DNA from: Candidatus Moraniibacteriota bacterium | GTDB lineage: Bacteria; Patescibacteriota; Minisyncoccia; Moranbacterales; UBA1568 | Reading direction: 5' to 3' | DNA: 64,000 bases | NCBI GenBank assembly: GCA_016699875.1 | Contig: CP064989.1 | Coordinates: 252,326-316,325 of the forward strand | Shown here: piece after piece, positions 3,514-51,170 of the stretch | Layout: every line of letters begins with the position of its first letter | Numbering within the stretch: position 1 is the stretch's first letter | Notes under the pieces: generated by a model | Seen by the model: only the letters and a program-made list of their open reading frames with translations | What the model was told of the DNA's origin: nothing | Databases searched by the model: none | Made by a program: the position numbers and the translations under genes

Positions 3514-4685
3514 GATTTTGAAGATATCGCTTCTTCGTAAGATACCCGATACGCCTTTGCCACTTCATTCCAACCCAAGCTCTCGGCACGGCGCCGACTC
3601 TCTTCACCGTATCGCTTCGCTTCATCCGAATGCGACGCAAGAAACGCAATTTTTTCAGCGATATGTTTCGAGTCGCGCATACGGACAATGCAACCGTTCA
3701 CACCGTCTTCTACCAATTCGCGTGTCCCGCCGGTATCCGTCGTAATAATCGGGAGTCCGCAGGCAAGCGCTTCAAGCACGTTATTGCTCATCCCCTCATT
3801 GAGAGAGGGTAGTACGTACACATGTGCCCGATGATAGAGCGGCACCACTTCATTGTGCGGCACCCGCCCGACAAATCGCACCCGATCAGAAAGGTCATGC
3901 TCCGCCACAAACGCCTCGAGCGACTCGCGTTCATGCCCATCGCCGGCGATATCCAAGAGAAATCGCCTCTTCTCCGAATTTTTCAACAAATGCATCGCCT
4001 CGAGCAATGACCGCAAACCCTTTCGAGGCGTGAGACGCGCAATAGCCAATACCTGAAATGGCTCGGAGACACCGTCTGAATAATTCCTCGGAACCGAGAA
4101 AAATTCCTTGATATCAACACCATTGCGCACGACCGCAATATCTCGCGACGACTCCGTAAGGAGCGCGAGTGTCCGAAGTCCCTCGCTGTTTGCGATTACC
4201 TTCGCCGCGTTCCGCCAAATAAACCGCGTCACCGGACGCAAGAAGAGGTAGAGATTCTTAAATCGCTCGCTATACCCAGGCACATCCGAACCGCGCAACG
4301 ATACGATATACGGGAGATGAAACTCCATAGAAAGCAGACGCATCACCAACCCCGATGGAACCGAAAAAAACGCATGCATACAATCGAACTGCTCCCGCTT
4401 CAAGAGCTGCCGTGAAAACATCCACGACTTCCAAGAATACGCAAGCAGATTCGCCTTCGACTGAAAATGAAGATCGCGCGCGCCATCTTTCTTCCCGACC
4501 GGGAGCCGCTCTATCTTGATATTCGGCGCCGGATATTCCGTCCGGTGAACACCGTCAACTGACGACGTCACCAGCACAATCTCCATATCCGAGAACACCG
4601 CAAACTCCCGAAGCATGTACTCCGTCGCATTCCCCGCTCCGCCTCCCAACGGCGGATACTCATAATTATGAATGAGGAGTTTCAC
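3510..4685 (-). CDS. GT4-family glycosyltransferase (GT-B fold)
   Basis: C-terminal block ...PSLNEGMSNNVLEALACGLPIITTDTGGTRELVEDGVNG matches the EX7E motif of retaining GT4 enzymes, and the N-terminus carries the Gly-rich GGGAG start. Confidence 0.8.
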   Translation of the reverse strand: MKLLIHNYEYPPLGGGAGNATEYMLREFAVFSDMEIVLVTSSVDGVHRTEYPAPNIKIERLPVGKKDGARDLHFQSKANLLAYSWKSWMFSRQLLKREQFDCMHAFFSVPSGLVMRLLSMEFHLPYIVSLRGSDVPGYSERFKNLYLFLRPVTRFIWRNAAKVIANSEGLRTLALLTESSRDIAVVRNGVDIKEFFSVPRNYSDGVSEPFQVLAIARLTPRKGLRSLLEAMHLLKNSEKRRFLLDIAGDGHERESLEAFVAEHDLSDRVRFVGRVPHNEVVPLYHRAHVYVLPSLNEGMSNNVLEALACGLPIITTDTGGTRELVEDGVNGCIVRMRDSKHIAEKIAFLASHSDEAKRYGEESRRRAESLGWNEVAKAYRVSYEEAISSKS

Positions 4686-8539: not shown

Positions 8540-10441
8540 CTACTTCCCATCCTCCACCTCTGCGTCTTTCGGAGATTCGGGAGTGCCTTCGGTTTTCGGC
8601 GGCTCGCCCTGCCCCGGTGCGGGAGGCGTTTCCGATTCCTGCGCGGCTTTGTAGAGTTTCTCGCCGATTTTCTGTGCGGATTCGGAGACCGCCTGCGATG
8701 CCTTCCGGATCGCTTCAAGATCATCGCCATTCTTCACCTTGTTGAGCTCGGCAATCGCGTCTTCCACTGGTTTCTTTTCATCCGCCGTCACTTTGTCGCC
8801 GGCATCGCGGATCGCTTTCTCGGTTGTGTAGACGAGACTGTCCGCCATATTGCGCGCTTCGACCAGTTCCTTCTTCCGCTTGTCTTCTTCAGCATGAAGC
8901 TCAGCGTCTTTCTTCATACGCTCGACCTCCTCTTTGGACAATCCGGTTGAAGATTCGATGCGGATAGACTGCGTCTTGTTCGTCGCTTTGTCCTTCGCGG
9001 TCACCGAGAGAATACCGTTTGCATCGATATCAAATGCGACTTCGATCTGCGGCACGCCGCGTGGCGCCGGCGGAATACCATCCAAAATAAACCGCCCGAG
9101 CGATTTGTTGTCCGCCGCCGTCTCGCGCTCGCCCTGGAGTACGTGTATTTCGACCGACGGTTGACTGTCCGCCGCCGTCGAGAATACCTTTGACTGCGAA
9201 ATAGGCACGGTTGAGTTTGCATCGATGATCGGTGTCCGCATACCGCCCAAGGTTTCGATGCCCAAGGTGAGTGGCGTCACATCAAGCAGAAGCACGTCTT
9301 TCACTGACCCCTCGAGCACGCCCCCCTGGATCGCAGCACCGATCGCCACAACTTCGTCGGGGTTCACGGAGATATCCGGCTTCTTGCCGAAGAACTCTTC
9401 GACGGTCTTAAGGACAAGCGGCATGCGCGTCATACCCCCGACCATCACTACCTCATTGATATCCTTCGCGCTCATGTCAGCATCTTTGAGCGCCTGCTTC
9501 ACCGGCGCAAGCGTCGCCACCACGAGATCATGCACGAGTTCTTCGAGCTTCGCTCGCGTCAACTTCATCACCAAGTGCTTCGGTCCCGAGGCATCGCTTG
9601 TAATAAACGGCTGATTGATTTCGGTATCCTGCGCCGTCGAGAGCTCGATCTTTGCCTTCTCTGCCGACTCCTTGATGCGCTGGAGTGCCAAAGGATCTTT
9701 GGAGAGATCGATACCTTCCTGCTTTTTGAATTCGTCGAGTATCCAATGAATCACCTTCTGATCGAAGTCGTCACCGCCCAAGTGCGTGTCACCGTTCGTC
9801 GAACGCACCTCAACCGTATCCGCTGCCACTTCGAGAATAGAGATATCGAATGTTCCCCCGCCCAAGTCATACACAGCGATTTTCTCATCTTGCTTCTTGT
9901 TGAAGCCATAAGCCAAAGCTGCCGCAGTCGGTTCATTGATAATCCGCCGCACATTGAGACCCGCGATTTCTCCCGCTTCCTTCGTCGCTTTGCGCTGCGA
10001 GTCATCGAAATACGCCGGCACCGTGATAACCGCCTCGGTGATTTTTTCGCCCAAGCGATCCTCGGCATCCGCCTTCAATTTCTGCAATACCATCGCCGAG
10101 ATTTCCTGCGGCGAGTATTCTTTGCTACCCATCACCACTTTCACGCCCTCGCCCGCTTTTACGATTTTATACGGAAGCGTTTTCTTATCGCGTTCCACTT
10201 CCTCGTCATCGAAGCGTCGCCCGATGAGTCTCTTGATCGAGAAGAGCGTATTCTCCGGATTCGTCACCGCCTGTCGCTTCGCGAGAAGTCCCACAAGCCG
10301 CTCGCCTGTCTTCGACACGGCAACCATCGATGGCGTCGTGCGATTTCCCTCTTTATTTTCTACGATCGTCGGGCTTCCGCCTTCAACAAACGCCATCGCC
10401 GAATTCGTCGTCCCGAGATCGATACCAAGTATCTTTGCCAT
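8540..10441 (-). CDS. dnaK: Molecular chaperone DnaK (Hsp70)
   Basis: [26 protein letters not shown] and the full-length actin-like ATPase plus substrate-binding domain (633 aa). Confidence 0.95.
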
Positions 10442-46731: not shown

Positions 46732-47310
46732 TTACGAAGCAAATGGATTTGGTCCATCAAAATCAAGACGCGGCGTTTGGTTGTTTATTTCATCAAGCGT
46801 TACGCCGTATTTACGCTGATATAGCGTTCCGACCGCACAGAAAAGCGCTTCGGAATAATTGAGTCCGAGTTCTTCTGAAACATGCTTCACCGATTCCTCC
46901 GAGTCGCCCTCCACTTCAATAAACGGCTCGAGAAATGGCCATTCATCTATGGTGATCTCCACTCCATCGAGCTTCCATAGTTCTCGCTTTGTCACCTGAT
47001 ATGATTTCTCTTTACAGCCAATCATACCCAGAAGCTCACAGGCGAACGAGAAGTCGTTCACCGAAAGACATATTTCTTTCTGATCGGTAATAGTATCACC
47101 ATCCACGGTCTTGAGACTCATGGTTATCTTGTTTCCCTCGTCGCGCACACGAAGCCACGCATTCTCTGATCGTTTTTCCTTTGGCAGGTGAAACGTCTTC
47201 CTTTTCTGTACATATTCCGGCCGCACCAAAAGAGCGCCCGACAATCTGAGCCGCTCACGAACATCATCCTTATCCACATCTGGAAATGTTGCTTCGTATT
47301 CAATGTTCAT
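46732..47310 (-). CDS. CYTH-like domain protein (class IV adenylate cyclase / triphosphatase superfamily)
   Basis: N-terminal IEYE(A)TF strand and a beta-barrel-like pattern of acidic residues. Low certainty. Confidence 0.35.
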   Translation of the reverse strand: MNIEYEATFPDVDKDDVRERLRLSGALLVRPEYVQKRKTFHLPKEKRSENAWLRVRDEGNKITMSLKTVDGDTITDQKEICLSVNDFSFACELLGMIGCKEKSYQVTKRELWKLDGVEITIDEWPFLEPFIEVEGDSEESVKHVSEELGLNYSEALFCAVGTLYQRKYGVTLDEINNQTPRLDFDGPNPFAS

Positions 47311-47353
47311 ACAGTAAAAATTCGCCCCCCTTCACCCCACTCCTTGCATAGCA

Positions 47354-47713
47354 TCATGTCCGAACTATTTCCGACCGGAAAAACTGTTCCTGGAAGTGTG
47401 TCGCCTTTCGAATTTCTTCGTCAGACATATCCTCGCTCGATTTCGGAACCACCACCAACTTGTCATCATCATCGTTCAGGCGGTGAATAATGGCAATACA
47501 TTTCCCCTTGAAAGATTCGATAGGTTTTTCAACACCGAGAACATAGGCATCCAATTCTTCCCCGTCGGGAGCTTTCGTATCGGGAATATATCCATAGTTC
47601 ACTTCATAGACAAAGCCATGCTTCGGATGTTTACTCCCGAACGGACGATCAATAACCGCCTCGACCTCTTTTCCGAGGTAGAGTTTGGCAGGTAAGAGAG
47701 GCGCTGATTTCAT
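47354..47713 (-). CDS. ppa: Inorganic pyrophosphatase-like protein (family I), N-terminally short
   Basis: NYGYIPDT...DGEELDAYVLG...DDKLVVVP parallels E. coli PPase NYGYINHT...DGDPVDVLVC...DAKLVAVP. Confidence 0.55.
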   Translation of the reverse strand: MKSAPLLPAKLYLGKEVEAVIDRPFGSKHPKHGFVYEVNYGYIPDTKAPDGEELDAYVLGVEKPIESFKGKCIAIIHRLNDDDDKLVVVPKSSEDMSDEEIRKATHFQEQFFRSEIVRT

Positions 47714-47768
47714 ATCAAGATACTACCATCAGTCTTTCACACAAGTAAAGCAAGAATCGAACAAGAAC

Positions 47769-47825
47769 ACGAAAAGCCCTTCGACAGAGTGCTCGAAAGG
47801 GCTTCGTGTTCGGACTGGCGGGGAC
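47769..47825. repeat. 57-bp direct repeat, copy 1 (duplicate of the tRNA-Asp 3' end plus its terminator hairpin)
   Basis: 57/57 identical to 48700-48756. Confidence 0.8.
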
Positions 47826-47950
47826 TGCGGGACGATTTTAGAACTATGGATTGGCACAATCTTTCGATTTAACTACAGCCAATACCTACCATTTGAGCGA
47901 GAATAGTATTTCCGACAGCATTGCTTATCCACGAGAAATTGAAGAGACAT

Positions 47951-48649
47951 TCATAACAACCCGACCATCTTTCTCGCTATTCCCGCATATTCGATTCTTG
48001 TCTCGGAGAATTGTTTCAAAAGTTTCCAGAATTCTGAATCGTGGTCTCGGATAAAAGGAAGCGCCTTGACCGGAGAAAGTGACCAGGAATTTCGATTCTC
48101 AAACCAGACACGGATCAGGGCTTCGTAGGCGATGCCGGCATAGTAAAACTGAACCGCCGGATTATCTTGATACTTCTCCAGTTTCTCCAACCAGCGACGA
48201 AGTTTATTTTTTCGATCCTTACAACCTGCCTGGTAAGCCACTTGAGGACCTTGATCAAAGACATGTTGTGTCCGTTCCATAGCTGCTTCAAACTTTCCTT
48301 GAGTATCATCAAAAAGAATCTTGACCGGCCAGATGGGAGCGTAGGGATTCGTAAAGACCCACCCTTCCGGTTTCGGCCATTCGTGAAAAGTAAGATCAAG
48401 TTCATGTCCATTCCAGTCAATGATCTCGCTCGGATATTTTTTCTCTCCGAACAGAAAAAGATCCCAATCGCTTGTCTCCGTCGCTGTTGTGTCCGTGCGC
48501 GACCCGGCGAGCGCAATCACATGAGGTTGATACGTTCTCCGCAAGAAAGCAATGAGTTGATGTTCCATAGTTTCGAATTCAAGTACAAAGCGCCCATTGT
48601 TGGGAATAATAGCACGGAAAGGTTCACCCAGAACCCACATTTTTTCCAC
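47951..48649 (-). CDS. Polymerase-beta-superfamily nucleotidyltransferase (ANT/KNTase-like)
   Basis: GSRTDTTATETSDWDLFLF (GS-x10-DxD) and a C-terminal helical domain. It lies between the 57-bp direct repeats. Confidence 0.6.
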   Translation of the reverse strand: MEKMWVLGEPFRAIIPNNGRFVLEFETMEHQLIAFLRRTYQPHVIALAGSRTDTTATETSDWDLFLFGEKKYPSEIIDWNGHELDLTFHEWPKPEGWVFTNPYAPIWPVKILFDDTQGKFEAAMERTQHVFDQGPQVAYQAGCKDRKNKLRRWLEKLEKYQDNPAVQFYYAGIAYEALIRVWFENRNSWSLSPVKALPFIRDHDSEFWKLLKQFSETRIEYAGIARKMVGLL

Positions 48650-48699
48650 CTACTATCAAAATCAGCCGTAAGAAAAGATTTGAGAGATACCCCTACAAT

Positions 48700-48756
48700 A
48701 CGAAAAGCCCTTCGACAGAGTGCTCGAAAGGGCTTCGTGTTCGGACTGGCGGGGAC
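48700..48756. repeat. 57-bp direct repeat, copy 2 (overlaps the 3' 10 nt of tRNA-Asp and includes its terminator hairpin)
   Basis: Identical to 47769-47825. Contains aagccctttcga...tcgaagggctt. Confidence 0.8.
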
Positions 48757-48823
48757 GACCGGGCTCGAACCGGCGACCTTCTGCGTGACAGGCAGACGCT
48801 CTAACCAACTGAGCTACGCCCCC
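48747..48823 (-). tRNA. tRNA-Asp (anticodon GUC), CCA encoded
   Basis: Reverse complement folds as gggggcg-...-tctgc-ctGTCac-gcaga-...-cgtcccc-g-CCA. Confidence 0.7.
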
Positions 48824-48845
48824 AATATAATATCTGCTTCGCGAG

Positions 48846-48919
48846 TACCAGGGGAGAGATTCGAACTCTCGACCCCGGGCTTATGAGTCCCGTGCTCTAA
48901 CCAACTGAGCTACCCTGGC
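48846..48919 (-). tRNA. tRNA-Met family (anticodon CAU); elongator versus Ile2 type is ambiguous
   Basis: Reverse complement folds as gccaggg-ta-gctc...gagc-a-cggga-ctCATaa-gcccg-...-ccctggt-a. Confidence 0.55.
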
Positions 48920-49388: not shown

Positions 49389-51170
49389 TCACTCCTCCAG
49401 AAACCCTCCGGTTTGCTTGTTCCAAAGTTTCGCATAAAGACCACCATGAACAAGCAGTTCTTCGTGCTTACCCTCTTCTTCGATTTCCCCTCCGCGATTC
49501 AAGACTACGATGCGATCGAGCTTGCGAATCGTGCTCAGCCGATGCGCAATGACAACCGCCGTCTTTCCGAGCATAAGCTCATCGAGTGCCTCCTGTATCG
49601 CGTGTTCGCTCTCCGAATCAAGCGAACTCGTCGCCTCGTCCAAAACAAGAATCATAGCATCTTTCAAAATCGCACGCGCAATAGCAATCCGCTGACGTTC
49701 ACCGCCAGAGAGTTTCACGCCGCGTTCCCCAACCAGTGTGTCATATCCTTTCGGAAGCCTTGATATGAAATCATGCGCCTCGGCTTGCTTGGCGGCCGCT
49801 ACCACCTCTTCATCCGAAGCCTCCGGCCGACCATAGGCAATGTTTTCACGAATCGACCGATGAAACAACATCGGCTCCTGAGGCACATAGGCGATATGCG
49901 AGCGAAGATCGTCTTGACGAATATTACGGATATTCTGTCCGTCAACGCGAATTTCCCCATCTTGCGGATCAACAAATCGAAGAAGAAGCTTCGTCACCGT
50001 CGACTTCCCCGCGCCGGAAGGTCCGACGATTCCCACCTTCTCTCCATCTCGGATAGCGAGTGAGAAATCCGTAAACACATTCTCGCCATCGGAATATTTG
50101 AAATAAATATTTTGGAACTCAATCCGCCCTTCCTGCATCCGATCCAATTCGGGATGCTTCGGATCAAGCACATCCGGCGCCGCATCGAACACCTCTATCA
50201 TTTCATCTGCATAGGCAAGGCTCCCGGTCATTTTCGAAAATATCCGACCAACAGCAAAAAGCATTTGAGCGATAGAAGTGATGTATATTTGCACCAATAC
50301 AACCGTTCCGGTAGAAATCATTCCTGCAAGCCAGAGCCGAATTGCCCCATACATACCGCCGATTTCTAAAATACTCAGAAGACTCATCTGAACAATAAAT
50401 GTAAGATTCTGAAAATTCCACGCTCGACGACGCAACTTTTCCTCAACGTCGGTCGATTCCTCAAACTGATGTTGCTCTCGAGTACCCGATGAGAACATCT
50501 TCACGGCGAGCATATTCGAAACAACATCCGAAAGTCTCCCGACTACCACGGAATCTTGTTCTGCTACAGCCAAATCATACGGGGCCTTCTTTTTTGAAAG
50601 CCACCAAGCCGTCAGAAGATAAAGTGCTGTCCAAACAAAGAATCCCGCCCCAAGAATCGGGGAAAGAACAAGCAGCGTCGCCAATATGCCAATCAAATTA
50701 ACCAGCGTCATCCATGCCGAAAAGACCACTTGGTCAAACAAATCTTCAAACGATTTTACATATCGCTTTGCTTTGGCCACCAAACTCCCAACAAAATTCC
50801 CCGAAAAGAAATGATAGCTATGCTGCTCCAAAGCAGAGAACGTCCGATCGGACACGTGTTTCATGACACGACTCTGCACATATACGATCGCATAATCCCC
50901 TATCCGATAGAGAACTTGGTAGGTAGCAATACAAGCAATAAGCCAGTAAAAATCCTGAAGGAGACGTTCGGAAACATCGCTTCGAATATTCGCTGTGGAA
51001 ACCGTATCAATGATGTTCCGGTAGACCAGCGGGAAAATTGCATGAGATATGATCGCCGCCAGTCCATACGCGACAAACAAGAGGATCGTCAAAAACCAGT
51101 ACCCCTTAAACGAAGGCGCGTAGGACAAAAAAACTCGTTTCAATAAATTGTTCGATTTCCGTTCCGACAT
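49389..51170 (-). CDS. ABC exporter with fused permease and ATPase domains (MsbA/ABCB-type)
   Basis: 6-TM domain followed by Walker A GPSGAGKST, the signature LSGGERQRIAIARA, and Walker B ILVLDEATS. Confidence 0.85.
   Translation of the reverse strand: MSERKSNNLLKRVFLSYAPSFKGYWFLTILLFVAYGLAAIISHAIFPLVYRNIIDTVSTANIRSDVSERLLQDFYWLIACIATYQVLYRIGDYAIVYVQSRVMKHVSDRTFSALEQHSYHFFSGNFVGSLVAKAKRYVKSFEDLFDQVVFSAWMTLVNLIGILATLLVLSPILGAGFFVWTALYLLTAWWLSKKKAPYDLAVAEQDSVVVGRLSDVVSNMLAVKMFSSGTREQHQFEESTDVEEKLRRRAWNFQNLTFIVQMSLLSILEIGGMYGAIRLWLAGMISTGTVVLVQIYITSIAQMLFAVGRIFSKMTGSLAYADEMIEVFDAAPDVLDPKHPELDRMQEGRIEFQNIYFKYSDGENVFTDFSLAIRDGEKVGIVGPSGAGKSTVTKLLLRFVDPQDGEIRVDGQNIRNIRQDDLRSHIAYVPQEPMLFHRSIRENIAYGRPEASDEEVVAAAKQAEAHDFISRLPKGYDTLVGERGVKLSGGERQRIAIARAILKDAMILVLDEATSSLDSESEHAIQEALDELMLGKTAVVIAHRLSTIRKLDRIVVLNRGGEIEEEGKHEELLVHGGLYAKLWNKQTGGFLEE

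Follow-up and report, generated by a model that had tools for sequence, protein, structure and literature searches.

Cis-mobilizable elements (CIMEs) and tandem accretion at tRNA genes have been reviewed (PMC5704250), and the Islander collection describes islands that carry a displaced 3' fragment of the tRNA gene at their distal end (PMC4383910). Tandem arrays at tRNA and tmRNA genes are likewise on record, and the same study stated that the use of such genes by serine integrases had not been reported before, found 14 candidates among 297, and reflects a view in which tRNA targets of serine integrases are regarded as rare or unproven (PMC7192596). In the tycheposons of Prochlorococcus, older elements are displaced outward as new ones integrate, so that the island comes to contain scattered remnants and partial tRNAs; a large serine recombinase (LSR) is present in 27 of 937 (10.1101/2020.12.28.424599). 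The present analysis concerns a unit of 931 bp with a single nucleotidyltransferase (NTase) gene that lies at the 3' end of the tRNA-Asp gene in a stretch of 64,000 nucleotides (hereafter the window) from a Candidatus Moraniibacteriota bacterium (contig CP064989.1, positions 252,326 to 316,325). To our knowledge, the mobile elements of the candidate phyla radiation (CPR), or Patescibacteria, are poorly described, and most classical routes of gene exchange are lacking in these organisms. We propose, with a probability of about three in four, that the unit is a non-autonomous, CIME-like remnant of a Moraniibacteriota family of LSR elements that insert at the 3' end of tRNA-Asp.

The window unit is bounded by direct repeats. 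On the minus strand the tRNA-Asp gene, with anticodon GTC, is intact and includes an encoded CCA (70.3 bits with the Rfam tRNA model), and a 57-nt stretch that takes in its end recurs with 57 of 57 positions identical, the two copies being offset by 931 bp from start to start; when extended to 47766-47825 and 48697-48756, they agree in 59 of 60 positions. With up to three mismatches allowed, the 57-mer has exactly two matches in the window and none in 100 shuffles. Read on the minus strand, it begins with GTCCCCGCCA, the final 10 nt of tRNA-Asp, which comprise the last six bases of the acceptor stem, the discriminator base and the CCA, and continues with a 47-nt hairpin and U-run, here named termA, that scored as terminator-like in both copies and folds with -26.3 kcal/mol (z = -3.5). 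Around the 10-nt core, inspection aimed at the LSR crossover found an outer GTTC...GAAC pair as the sole dyad symmetry. Perfect repeats of this composition, 931 bp apart, with a single NTase gene and no integrase between them, had been proposed in an earlier sequence-only reading of this DNA, and a survey of open reading frames (ORFs) together with tblastn searches bears that description out: the frame at 47951-48649 (232 aa from a GTG) is the only substantial one with homologues between the repeats, no second homologue-supported ORF was found there, and neither a recombinase between the repeats nor a relative of the LSR anywhere in the window was detected. Nor is the 57-mer scattered over tRNA-independent loci, a pattern which that reading had regarded as incompatible with an island. 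The check on cargo composition that it proposed did not set the insert apart, as the GC content between the repeats (0.45-0.47) is not atypical next to that of the neighbouring DNA (0.45-0.50).

The clearest link between the repeat and a recombinase is found on its opposite strand. In relatives (contigs are cited below by L numbers) an LSR gene abuts the core and termA (L014, L034, L035 and L038); its product has the Pfam domains Resolvase, Recombinase and Zn_ribbon_recom and matches the phrog_95 integrase (E = 2e-73), and no tyrosine recombinase was found in the related units examined in L014, L034 and L035. The last ~20 codons of this LSR (YKKPFDRVLERASCSDWRG) are the reverse complement of the 57-mer. 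A tblastn search of the window with the L014 LSR accordingly returned two short, strong matches, one per repeat copy, with residues 479-500 aligned to 48693-58 at 95% identity and residues 480-502 to 47765-47833 at 83%; translated on the plus strand, copy 1 gives LQYEKPFDRVLERASCSDWRGRPGSNR and copy 2 contains EKPFDRVLERASCSDWRGLRDDFRTMDW. LSR homologues as distant as 44% identity, when aligned, share YKKPFDRVxxRASCSDWRG as their extreme C-terminal motif, and past it come tails such as RxDSNPRP and DWRGRxDSNPRP. We read these tails as being encoded by the reverse-complemented acceptor and T-arm of a tRNA, and the ORF of the integrated state would therefore pass through the attachment (att) site into the tRNA gene. 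The tail of one LSR protein, P0152, instead reads the P-arm (WRGLRDDFRTFNW), as expected of an attP-type configuration; by P-arm we mean a sequence of ~29-30 nt at the far end of the element, ahead of the displaced tRNA end. The KPFD and ERAS codons are the two arms of the termA hairpin, and thus one shared stretch of DNA supplies the replacement 3' end of the tRNA, its terminator and the conserved C-terminus of the LSR. Since the 57-mer equals the reversed C-terminal codons of the LSR, both of its copies in the window appear to be element-derived, the fossil ends of LSR genes. The 47-nt sequence had been taken for a terminator and the locus for the site of a tRNA-targeting integrative element; the hairpin is indeed terminator-like and the geometry stands, with the refinements that the hairpin is also the reverse complement of recombinase codons and that the missing integrase was an LSR and not a tyrosine integrase.

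The ends of the unit are equally sharp in relatives. P0017, a protein of 205 aa that is 88% identical to the window NTase, is encoded on at least 22 contigs, and the NTase module shows 85-88% identity to the window in more than 20 contigs. In blastn comparisons with L013-L023 and L038, homology to the window stops at 47815-47818, which is the CCA end or at most 2 nt away from it. Past the CCA come termA and a pyrophosphatase gene in the window, termA and a recombinase gene in L038 and L039, a second hairpin, termB, and an 85-aa gene in L013, L017 and L019, a third, termC, and a DUF2726 gene in L014, L015, L018, L020, L022 and L023, and a fourth, termD, in L016. The left side of the module varies as well, being the real tRNA-Asp in the window, the end of another module (...GATTACGTCCCGAA followed by GTCCCCGCCA and termA) in L017, and a Pkinase-HAD gene pair in L014 and others. 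Breakpoints this precise at a core of 10 nt, together with flanks that can be exchanged, carry the signature of site-specific recombination; such a combination would not be expected from homologous exchange or local duplication. The attL/attR geometry postulated earlier is upheld by these comparisons, in that module homology ends at the CCA with four different sequences beyond it. Moreover, L038, a SPAdes metagenome contig from an independent assembly, shows the same order of hairpin, NTase gene, displaced tRNA end and second hairpin, so that the architecture of the unit is not an assembly artefact.

Full-length relatives of the unit supply the genes that it lacks. A scan for the core followed by termA over one genome per species matched one other genome, the complete Moraniibacteriota chromosome CP064994, which is the nearest one of that completeness, and similar scans matched five metagenome contigs and none of the viral contigs. 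In CP064994 an ABC transporter gene, tRNA-Met, the real tRNA-Asp and termA are followed by the LSR gene on the opposite strand, and then by a type II restriction-modification pair, an HTH_17 gene, a protein with the Pfam domain Phage_CRI, which resembles a rolling-circle replication initiator, and an M78 peptidase. The LSR gene of this chromosome (L034:9820-10010, CP064994.1) is frameshifted after about codon 20 and annotated with 445 aa, leaving out the region of the catalytic serine; it may be either a pseudogene or the product of a homopolymer error in a long-read assembly. The LSR of L014 is 95% identical to it and belongs to an element of 5.4 kb that has GTCCCCGCCA at both ends, with the LSR gene at one end and the NTase gene at the other, the order being termA, LSR, Methylase_S (the domain of restriction-modification specificity subunits), a 193-aa ORF, Pkinase, HAD, NTase, P-arm and core. 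On the same contig, two 124-nt module termini (28-151 and 9829-9952, termed X-ends) are 86% identical and 9.8 kb apart, each closing in GTCCCGTC and the tRNA-Asp end; they flank the LSR-NTase element together with a DUF2726/CARDB module, and an rve-family transposase gene follows the second copy. This pair was considered as proof of a circular form and rejected, as its copies are only 86% identical.

L035 has, after tRNA-Met and tRNA-Asp, a series of three modules that all close in GTTCTAAnnTCGTnCCnnn and a tRNA end. The first (2.1 kb) carries an M23 peptidase gene and the second (0.8 kb) only a metallophosphoesterase gene, while the third is an island of 7.1 kb with both ends visible, in which an LSR gene (85% identical) is followed by restriction-modification genes, an HTH_17 gene that matches phrog_66 'excisionase', a 397-aa ORF, and M78 and HTH_3 genes. 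The P-arm of this island, CCAATTGAAGGTTCTAAAGTCGTCCCGTA, is of the same type as that found after the NTase gene in the window (CCAATCCATAGTTCTAAAATCGTCCCGCA), and the consensus GTTCTAAnnTCGTCCCnnn of the window P-arm likewise occurs at its far end. An excisionase-like HTH_17 gene is thus present in both L034 and L035. Full elements of this kind measure 5.4-7.1 kb and lie in tandem arrays at tRNA-Asp, and in L038, as in accretion, termA and then an LSR gene come after a compact NTase module. The metallophosphoesterase (Metallophos) gene of L035 (11489-12342, 265 aa) is of note in its own right: lying without an integrase between the M23-peptidase module and the LSR island, it is flanked by direct repeats of 35 nt, 91% identical, that consist of the P-arm and ATCCCCGCCA, and its ATG overlaps the final A of the upstream core.

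LSRs that are 35-40% identical to the Moraniibacteriota protein occur on IMG/VR viral contigs. Their ORFs enter a tRNA-Gln gene on the opposite strand in L041, L044 and L064 (LSR end at ~4488-4497, tRNA-Gln at c[4489-4568]), and in L061 the LSR meets an opposite-strand tRNA-Leu at c[4444-4524]; L042, L053 and L062 encode LSRs of this kind as well, and some of the tails resemble reverse-complemented T-arms (RDSNPRP, GVEPTS). This arrangement suggests a broad clade of serine integrases aiming at tRNA 3' ends.

How such an element might have given rise to the window unit can be outlined as follows. An intact member carries its LSR gene on the strand opposite the tRNA, the last ~20 codons overlapping the tRNA-proximal arm P'; this arm re-supplies the last 10 nt of the tRNA and its terminator hairpin and in the reverse sense encodes the LSR C-terminus, and the far end consists of the P-arm and then the displaced tRNA end. 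We infer that an LSR element with the NTase gene at its distal end integrated at tRNA-Asp, and that an internal deletion then took out the LSR and other genes, leaving the hairpin, the NTase gene and the P-arm. A parallel is provided by a compact form of the module, type 2 (L013, L017 and L038), in which the hairpin is fused, at the junction of termA and ATCGGGGTTTCAC, with the 3' half of the HAD-gene terminator known from L014. The type-2 form corresponds to an L014-type element minus one deletion with 2 nt of microhomology, by which the LSR, Methylase_S, 193-aa, Pkinase and HAD genes were lost. Between the two alternatives offered by the sequence-only reading, a decayed island and a small cassette mobilised in trans, the former is therefore the better supported, given a 5.4-kb relative with the same ends from which one deletion yields a compact form.

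The window and type-2 units are two NTase-only derivatives with different internal junctions. In the window, the spacer of 85 nt between hairpin and NTase gene differs from that of type 2 and has in common with the LSR-side flank only ATTGTAGG(G/A)G, with no match elsewhere. Because the spacer differs, the window copy is probably an independent reduction of a similar element. The sequence ATTGTAGGGG directly past copy 1 is the sole trace of the recombinase-proximal arm beyond the repeat. A remnant of the LSR gene in the 131-nt spacer of the window was sought by local alignment and rejected as not significant, since the scores were equalled or exceeded by 484 and 715 of 2000 shuffles and the first 10 nt alone match; a blastn-short search against all loci with the first 90 nt of this spacer returned chance 11-12-mers only. 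The unit is taken as non-autonomous because no LSR lies in the window and none of the best 120 LSR homologues comes from the genome to which it belongs (1,088,644 bp). Both att arms are still there, however, and excision or co-mobilisation by an LSR element that newly arrives is conceivable: if the two 57-mers recombined, a circle of 931 bp would result, in which the junction of P-arm, core and termA would share the architecture of the attP-type site next to the LSR gene of P0152. The coordinates of the unit and its neighbours are collected in Table 1; the pyrophosphatase flank is taken to be chromosomal because the gene, with 7791 homologues, is a widespread core gene of Moranbacteria.

Table 1. 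Positions in the window of the tRNA-Asp unit, its parts and the flanking genes
Feature	Position	Strand	Remarks
Intact tRNA-Asp (GTC), target gene	48747..48823	-	last 10 nt (48747-48756) within repeat copy 1; ARAGORN, Rfam RF00005
Repeat copy 1, attL side	48700..48756	-	tRNA 3' core GTCCCCGCCA (48756-48747) and termA
Repeat copy 1, read on plus strand	48700..48756	+	encodes LQYEKPFDRVLERASCSDWRG; 95% identity to LSR residues 479-500
Repeat copy 2, attR side	47769..47825	-	displaced tRNA-Asp 3' end (47825-47816) and second termA; no tRNA before copy 2
ATTGTAGGGG directly past copy 1 (minus-strand sense)	48690..48699	-	9/10 match to LSR-side flank ATTGTAGGAG of CP064994
P-arm CCAATCCATAGTTCTAAAATCGTCCCGCA, element-side half of distal junction	47826..47854	-	consensus GTTCTAAnnTCGTCCCnnn
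Conserved NTase module	47816..48615	-	promoter-like TGCTATTAT, coding sequence, 125-nt 3' region, displaced tRNA end
Cargo NTase, 205 aa	47951..48568	-	G22-S23, D34-W-D36, D58; mechanical ORF up to GTG at 48649 (232 aa)
Right flank, short inorganic pyrophosphatase	47354..47713	-	Pfam; then CYTH-domain and DNA-alkylation-repair genes
Left flank, tRNA-Met	48845..48919	-	then ABC transporter 49389-51170; syntenic with CP064994

Several observations weigh against the remnant interpretation. The second copy of termA admits more than one explanation; it might be the start of a second, almost wholly deleted tandem element, comparable to the array of L038 in which an LSR comes next, or else part of a long block of identity between attB and attP. 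Both window copies carry the private variant TTTTCGT (K482E in the LSR frame), which is absent from relatives and suggests gene conversion or local duplication after decay. The deletion origin of the window copy would have to be argued from the type-2 derivative, the spacer of the window itself being unmatched, and catalysis by an LSR at the tRNA-Asp site is presumed from the adjacency of gene and site. LSRs normally need only a short identity and recombine attP with attB only, and both tandem arrays and an identity block of 57 bp are more typical of tyrosine recombinases. Finally, a clean empty site, with tRNA-Asp, its native terminator and the pyrophosphatase gene in that order, was looked for, as the sequence-only reading had suggested, and not found in the scanned genomes and contigs. 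CP064994 agrees with the window in the left flank but holds a different element at tRNA-Asp, its LSR island, which amounts to alternative occupancy only. Close homologues of the pyrophosphatase (78-88% identity) have HSP70-like, NUDIX and ASCH neighbours and no tRNA-Asp, and since synteny around this gene is so fluid in relatives, an approach to the empty site through it is unworkable.

It is possible, though on balance unlikely, that the unit is no remnant and instead a mini-cassette that is still mobile, a 931-bp circle being regularly excised and re-inserted by an LSR acting in trans, with tRNA-Asp as the anchor of an integron-like array. Both att arms are intact and the repeats perfect, P-arms and right flanks occur in many combinations, the type-2 module is known with two right flanks and with a left flank other than a tRNA (L017 against L038), and a second single-gene module, that of the metallophosphoesterase in L035 with its 35-nt repeats, is at hand. 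No circular form was observed, however, there is no LSR in the window or, apparently, in the genome, and the differing internal junctions of the two compact forms fit independent deletions better than the spread of one cassette, while the shuffling of flanks can also be brought about by neighbouring full-length elements that integrate and excise. An account that dispenses with site-specific recombination, in which local duplication, gene conversion, or homologous or illegitimate recombination copied the tRNA end and terminator past a resident NTase gene, would explain the private TTTTCGT in both copies as copy-to-copy homogenisation and would accord with the distant NTase homologues in repeat-less chromosomal contexts (L001 and L010). 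We nevertheless regard it as improbable: every close relative has the same P-arm and displaced tRNA end after the NTase gene, whatever lies downstream, the 7.1-kb LSR island is closed by the same type of P-arm, termA encodes a conserved LSR C-terminus, and a local duplication would not predict four alternative flanks behind breakpoints that coincide with the CCA.

A functional connection between gene and tRNA is still harder to credit. On this account the NTase would act on tRNA 3' ends, in the manner of MenT or of CCA-adding-type enzymes, and the displaced GTCCCCGCCA would be a transcribed mimic of the tRNA end with the role of substrate, decoy or regulator, which would suit the occurrence of NTase homologues just downstream of tRNA-Asp in the window, of tRNA-Ala(cgc) in L004 and of tRNA-Ala(ggc) in L007. 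The mimic, however, lacks a 5' acceptor strand with which it could pair; by fold, the enzyme is closest to small-molecule-modifying ANT enzymes and not to tRNA nucleotidyltransferases; unrelated cargo modules (Metallophos, M23 peptidase, the LSR island) close in the same motif; and the 135-nt 3' region that ends in the mimic is no better structured than its shuffles (z = +0.25), on which ground the idea of a structured RNA past the NTase gene, tRNA-like or other, was rejected. That a repeat was collapsed or mis-joined during assembly of a metagenome-assembled genome is scarcely credible. Short-read contigs from other samples do break inside the repeat (L036, L037 and L040), as a repeat in the assembly graph would make them do, but the whole unit, both hairpins included, is contained in the independently assembled L038, the source is one contig of apparently near-complete or closed state, and a length of 57 bp fits no standard k-mer overlap, the similarity running on to 59 of 60 positions. 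A CIME-like remnant of a tRNA-Asp-specific LSR element is therefore the interpretation that we retain.

The cargo gene merits separate consideration. Its coding sequence is probably that of 205 aa (47951-48568), because homologues all start at M28 of the longer frame; the 205-aa form is identical to QQS16019.1, whereas a look-up of exact proteins with the 232-aa form gave no match. The motif predicted earlier, GS-x10-DxD, is present as GS-x10-DWD, and the proposed length of 232 aa has to be given up; across 20 homologues, the residues of the minimal NTase motif (G22-S23, D34, D36 and D58) are invariant or nearly so. Profile searches gave no family assignment: matches to Pfam Polbeta and NTP_transf_2 fell under the gathering scores, no NCBIfam family exceeded its cutoff (MntA scored 16.9 bits against a cutoff of 60), a profile search of the PDB returned only the active-site motif of an MNT antitoxin (E = 0.26), and PADLOC and PHROGs gave nothing meaningful. 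The AlphaFold model (pLDDT 92) consists of an N-terminal Pol-beta NTase domain and a C-terminal helical bundle. Its best Foldseek matches are ANT(4')/KNTase structures (6un8, 1kan and 4ebj; E ~1e-5, TM 0.5-0.57, probability 1.0, ~15% identity), followed by weaker ones to an uncharacterised NTase (3c18), Hailong HalB, LinB, AAD(9) and MntA. By inspection, the C-terminal domain has no Rx4-6H motif, and no HEPN partner adjoins the gene. The protein has an intact catalytic triad and is an apparently active enzyme of KNTase fold that would be riding along as cargo. The ANT/KNTase likeness noted in the sequence-only reading holds at the level of the fold only, and the protein could be assigned neither to a resistance family nor to a toxin-antitoxin family, being no demonstrable resistance gene product or MNT antitoxin.

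Distant homologues of the NTase (49-61% identity) lie in ordinary, varied contexts, two of them beside tRNA-Ala and one after a Pkinase-HAD pair, and no flanking repeats of 18 nt or more were found around those in L001, L004, L007, L008 and L010. The occurrence of repeat-less distant homologues (L001 and L010) shows that the family is not restricted to the element; conserved synteny of the gene across relatives in the absence of repeats, which the sequence-only reading had named as an objection to an island, was not encountered. In L004 (5591-6720) and L007 (490-1427), homologues of 53-59% identity stand just downstream of tRNA genes, the neighbours being tRNA-Ala(cgc) in L004 and, on either side, tRNA-Ala(ggc) and tRNA-Arg(cct) in L007. 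In L004, tRNA-Ala carries at its end the 8-mer GTCCACAC, which appears again 77 nt past the NTase stop, just before the terminator, a recurrence that is suggestive only, as ~0.4 matches would be expected by chance. A 16-mer, TGCTATAATCGACTGT, extended -10-like in character, is common to L004 (5960-5976), where it is upstream of the NTase gene, and L007 (1260-1276), where it is upstream of tRNA-Arg, and is probably a promoter typical of the lineage. L007 also contains an ORF with a weak LAGLIDADG_3 match (3531-4641) that overlaps the region of tRNA-Leu(taa) and could be akin to the group I introns described from tRNA genes of Patescibacteria (PMC13011429).

A trio of Pkinase, HAD hydrolase and NTase genes (L001:4216-6636, L014:3082-5456, L016, L019-L023) is common to the tRNA-Asp islands and to the distant relative L001, in which the NTase is 61% identical and no tRNA is nearby; this distribution hints at a functional operon. 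The kinase of the trio matches the PADLOC models PD-T4-6 and MkoA kinase. In different Moranbacteria, moreover, NTase and pyrophosphatase genes are repeatedly found among genes of nucleotide 'house-cleaning' (NUDIX, CYTH, HIT, HAD and PPase), as in the window (46732-47713), in L010 (4959-7557), where a CYTH gene immediately precedes the NTase homologue, and in L025 (1489-4633).

The locus offers a precise, sequence-defined att system for small integrative elements in Patescibacteria, at which accessory genes have been left as one-gene islets beside a tRNA, an NTase gene here and a metallophosphoesterase gene in a relative, while full elements carry restriction-modification genes. With three functions laid over each other, the end of the LSR gene would in addition illustrate, in compact form, how several constraints can bear on the same DNA. 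A more far-reaching proposal, which at present seems doubtful to us, is that tRNA-Asp of Moraniibacteriota anchors an integron-like array of cassettes driven by the LSR, and that the LSR clade, phage copies included, forms a dedicated tRNA-targeting lineage. The modules of such an array, of one gene or a few genes each, may include those of the NTase, metallophosphoesterase, M23 peptidase, DUF2726 and restriction-modification genes, each closing in a P-arm and the tRNA 3' end, and an LSR would capture, shuffle and excise them. If the array were real, the 3' end of the LSR gene would serve as P' arm of attP, as replacement tRNA end and terminator, and as conserved C-terminus; if the lineage were real, it would be a class reported as essentially unknown in 2020. 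Serine integrases are valued tools of genome engineering, and a whole clade in which the ORF enters its tRNA target would naturally provide integrases whose attB sites are conserved and predictable.

The NTase, modelled as a two-domain protein with GS...DxD and a third acidic residue, resembles ANT(4')/KNTase (1KNY and 6UN8), LinB, AAD(9), HalB and MntA; it shares the fold of ANT(4')/KNTase but, at ~15% identity and below every family threshold, not family membership at the level of sequence. With MntA below its cutoff, no HEPN partner and no Rx4-6H motif, it cannot be placed among the MNT-HEPN (type VII) toxin-antitoxin systems. The unit is also distinct from integron gene cassettes, since its module ends are derived from a tRNA, its 3' region is devoid of significant structure and no tyrosine recombinase was found in the related loci, and the hallmark of an LSR system, recombinase domains beside attP or attL, is seen in the relatives only.

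The unit shares with Prochlorococcus tycheposons the carriage of cargo elements at tRNA genes of a streamlined genome, but the host belongs to another phylum, the recombinase to another family, and the P' arm here coincides with a recombinase C-terminus and a tRNA terminator. As in islands that target tRNA and tmRNA genes, the tRNA of the window is intact and regenerated by element sequence, the displaced 3' fragment (47816-47825) forms a direct repeat at the far end, and tandem arrays with repeated tRNA-end fragments occur; by the standards of Islander the unit thus has an intact tRNA and a displaced fragment, but no integrase inside. Those islands overwhelmingly use tyrosine integrases, whereas here the recombinase ORF crosses the att site into the tRNA. 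A close parallel is with CIMEs, such as those related to Streptococcus ICESt1 and ICESt3 and the composite islands at tRNA-Lys. Like these, the unit has attL and attR, with the P' side (termA and ATTGTAGG) and the P-arm present and genes for integration and transfer absent; it has lost its recombination genes, it is plausibly derived from an autonomous element by deletion, and its relative in L038 stands in tandem with a full element. Unlike them, it is exceptionally small (0.93 kb, one gene) and its cis-mobilisation is putative, its parent uses an LSR and not a tyrosine integrase, conjugation genes are absent, and its host belongs to the CPR. CIME-like remnants that stand in tandem-accretion arrays beside tRNA genes are familiar from tyrosine-integrase elements and tycheposons; the present case differs in that an LSR takes the place of the tyrosine integrase, that the LSR gene shares sequence with the att site, with the end of the tRNA and with its terminator, and that the host phylum is another, the Patescibacteria.

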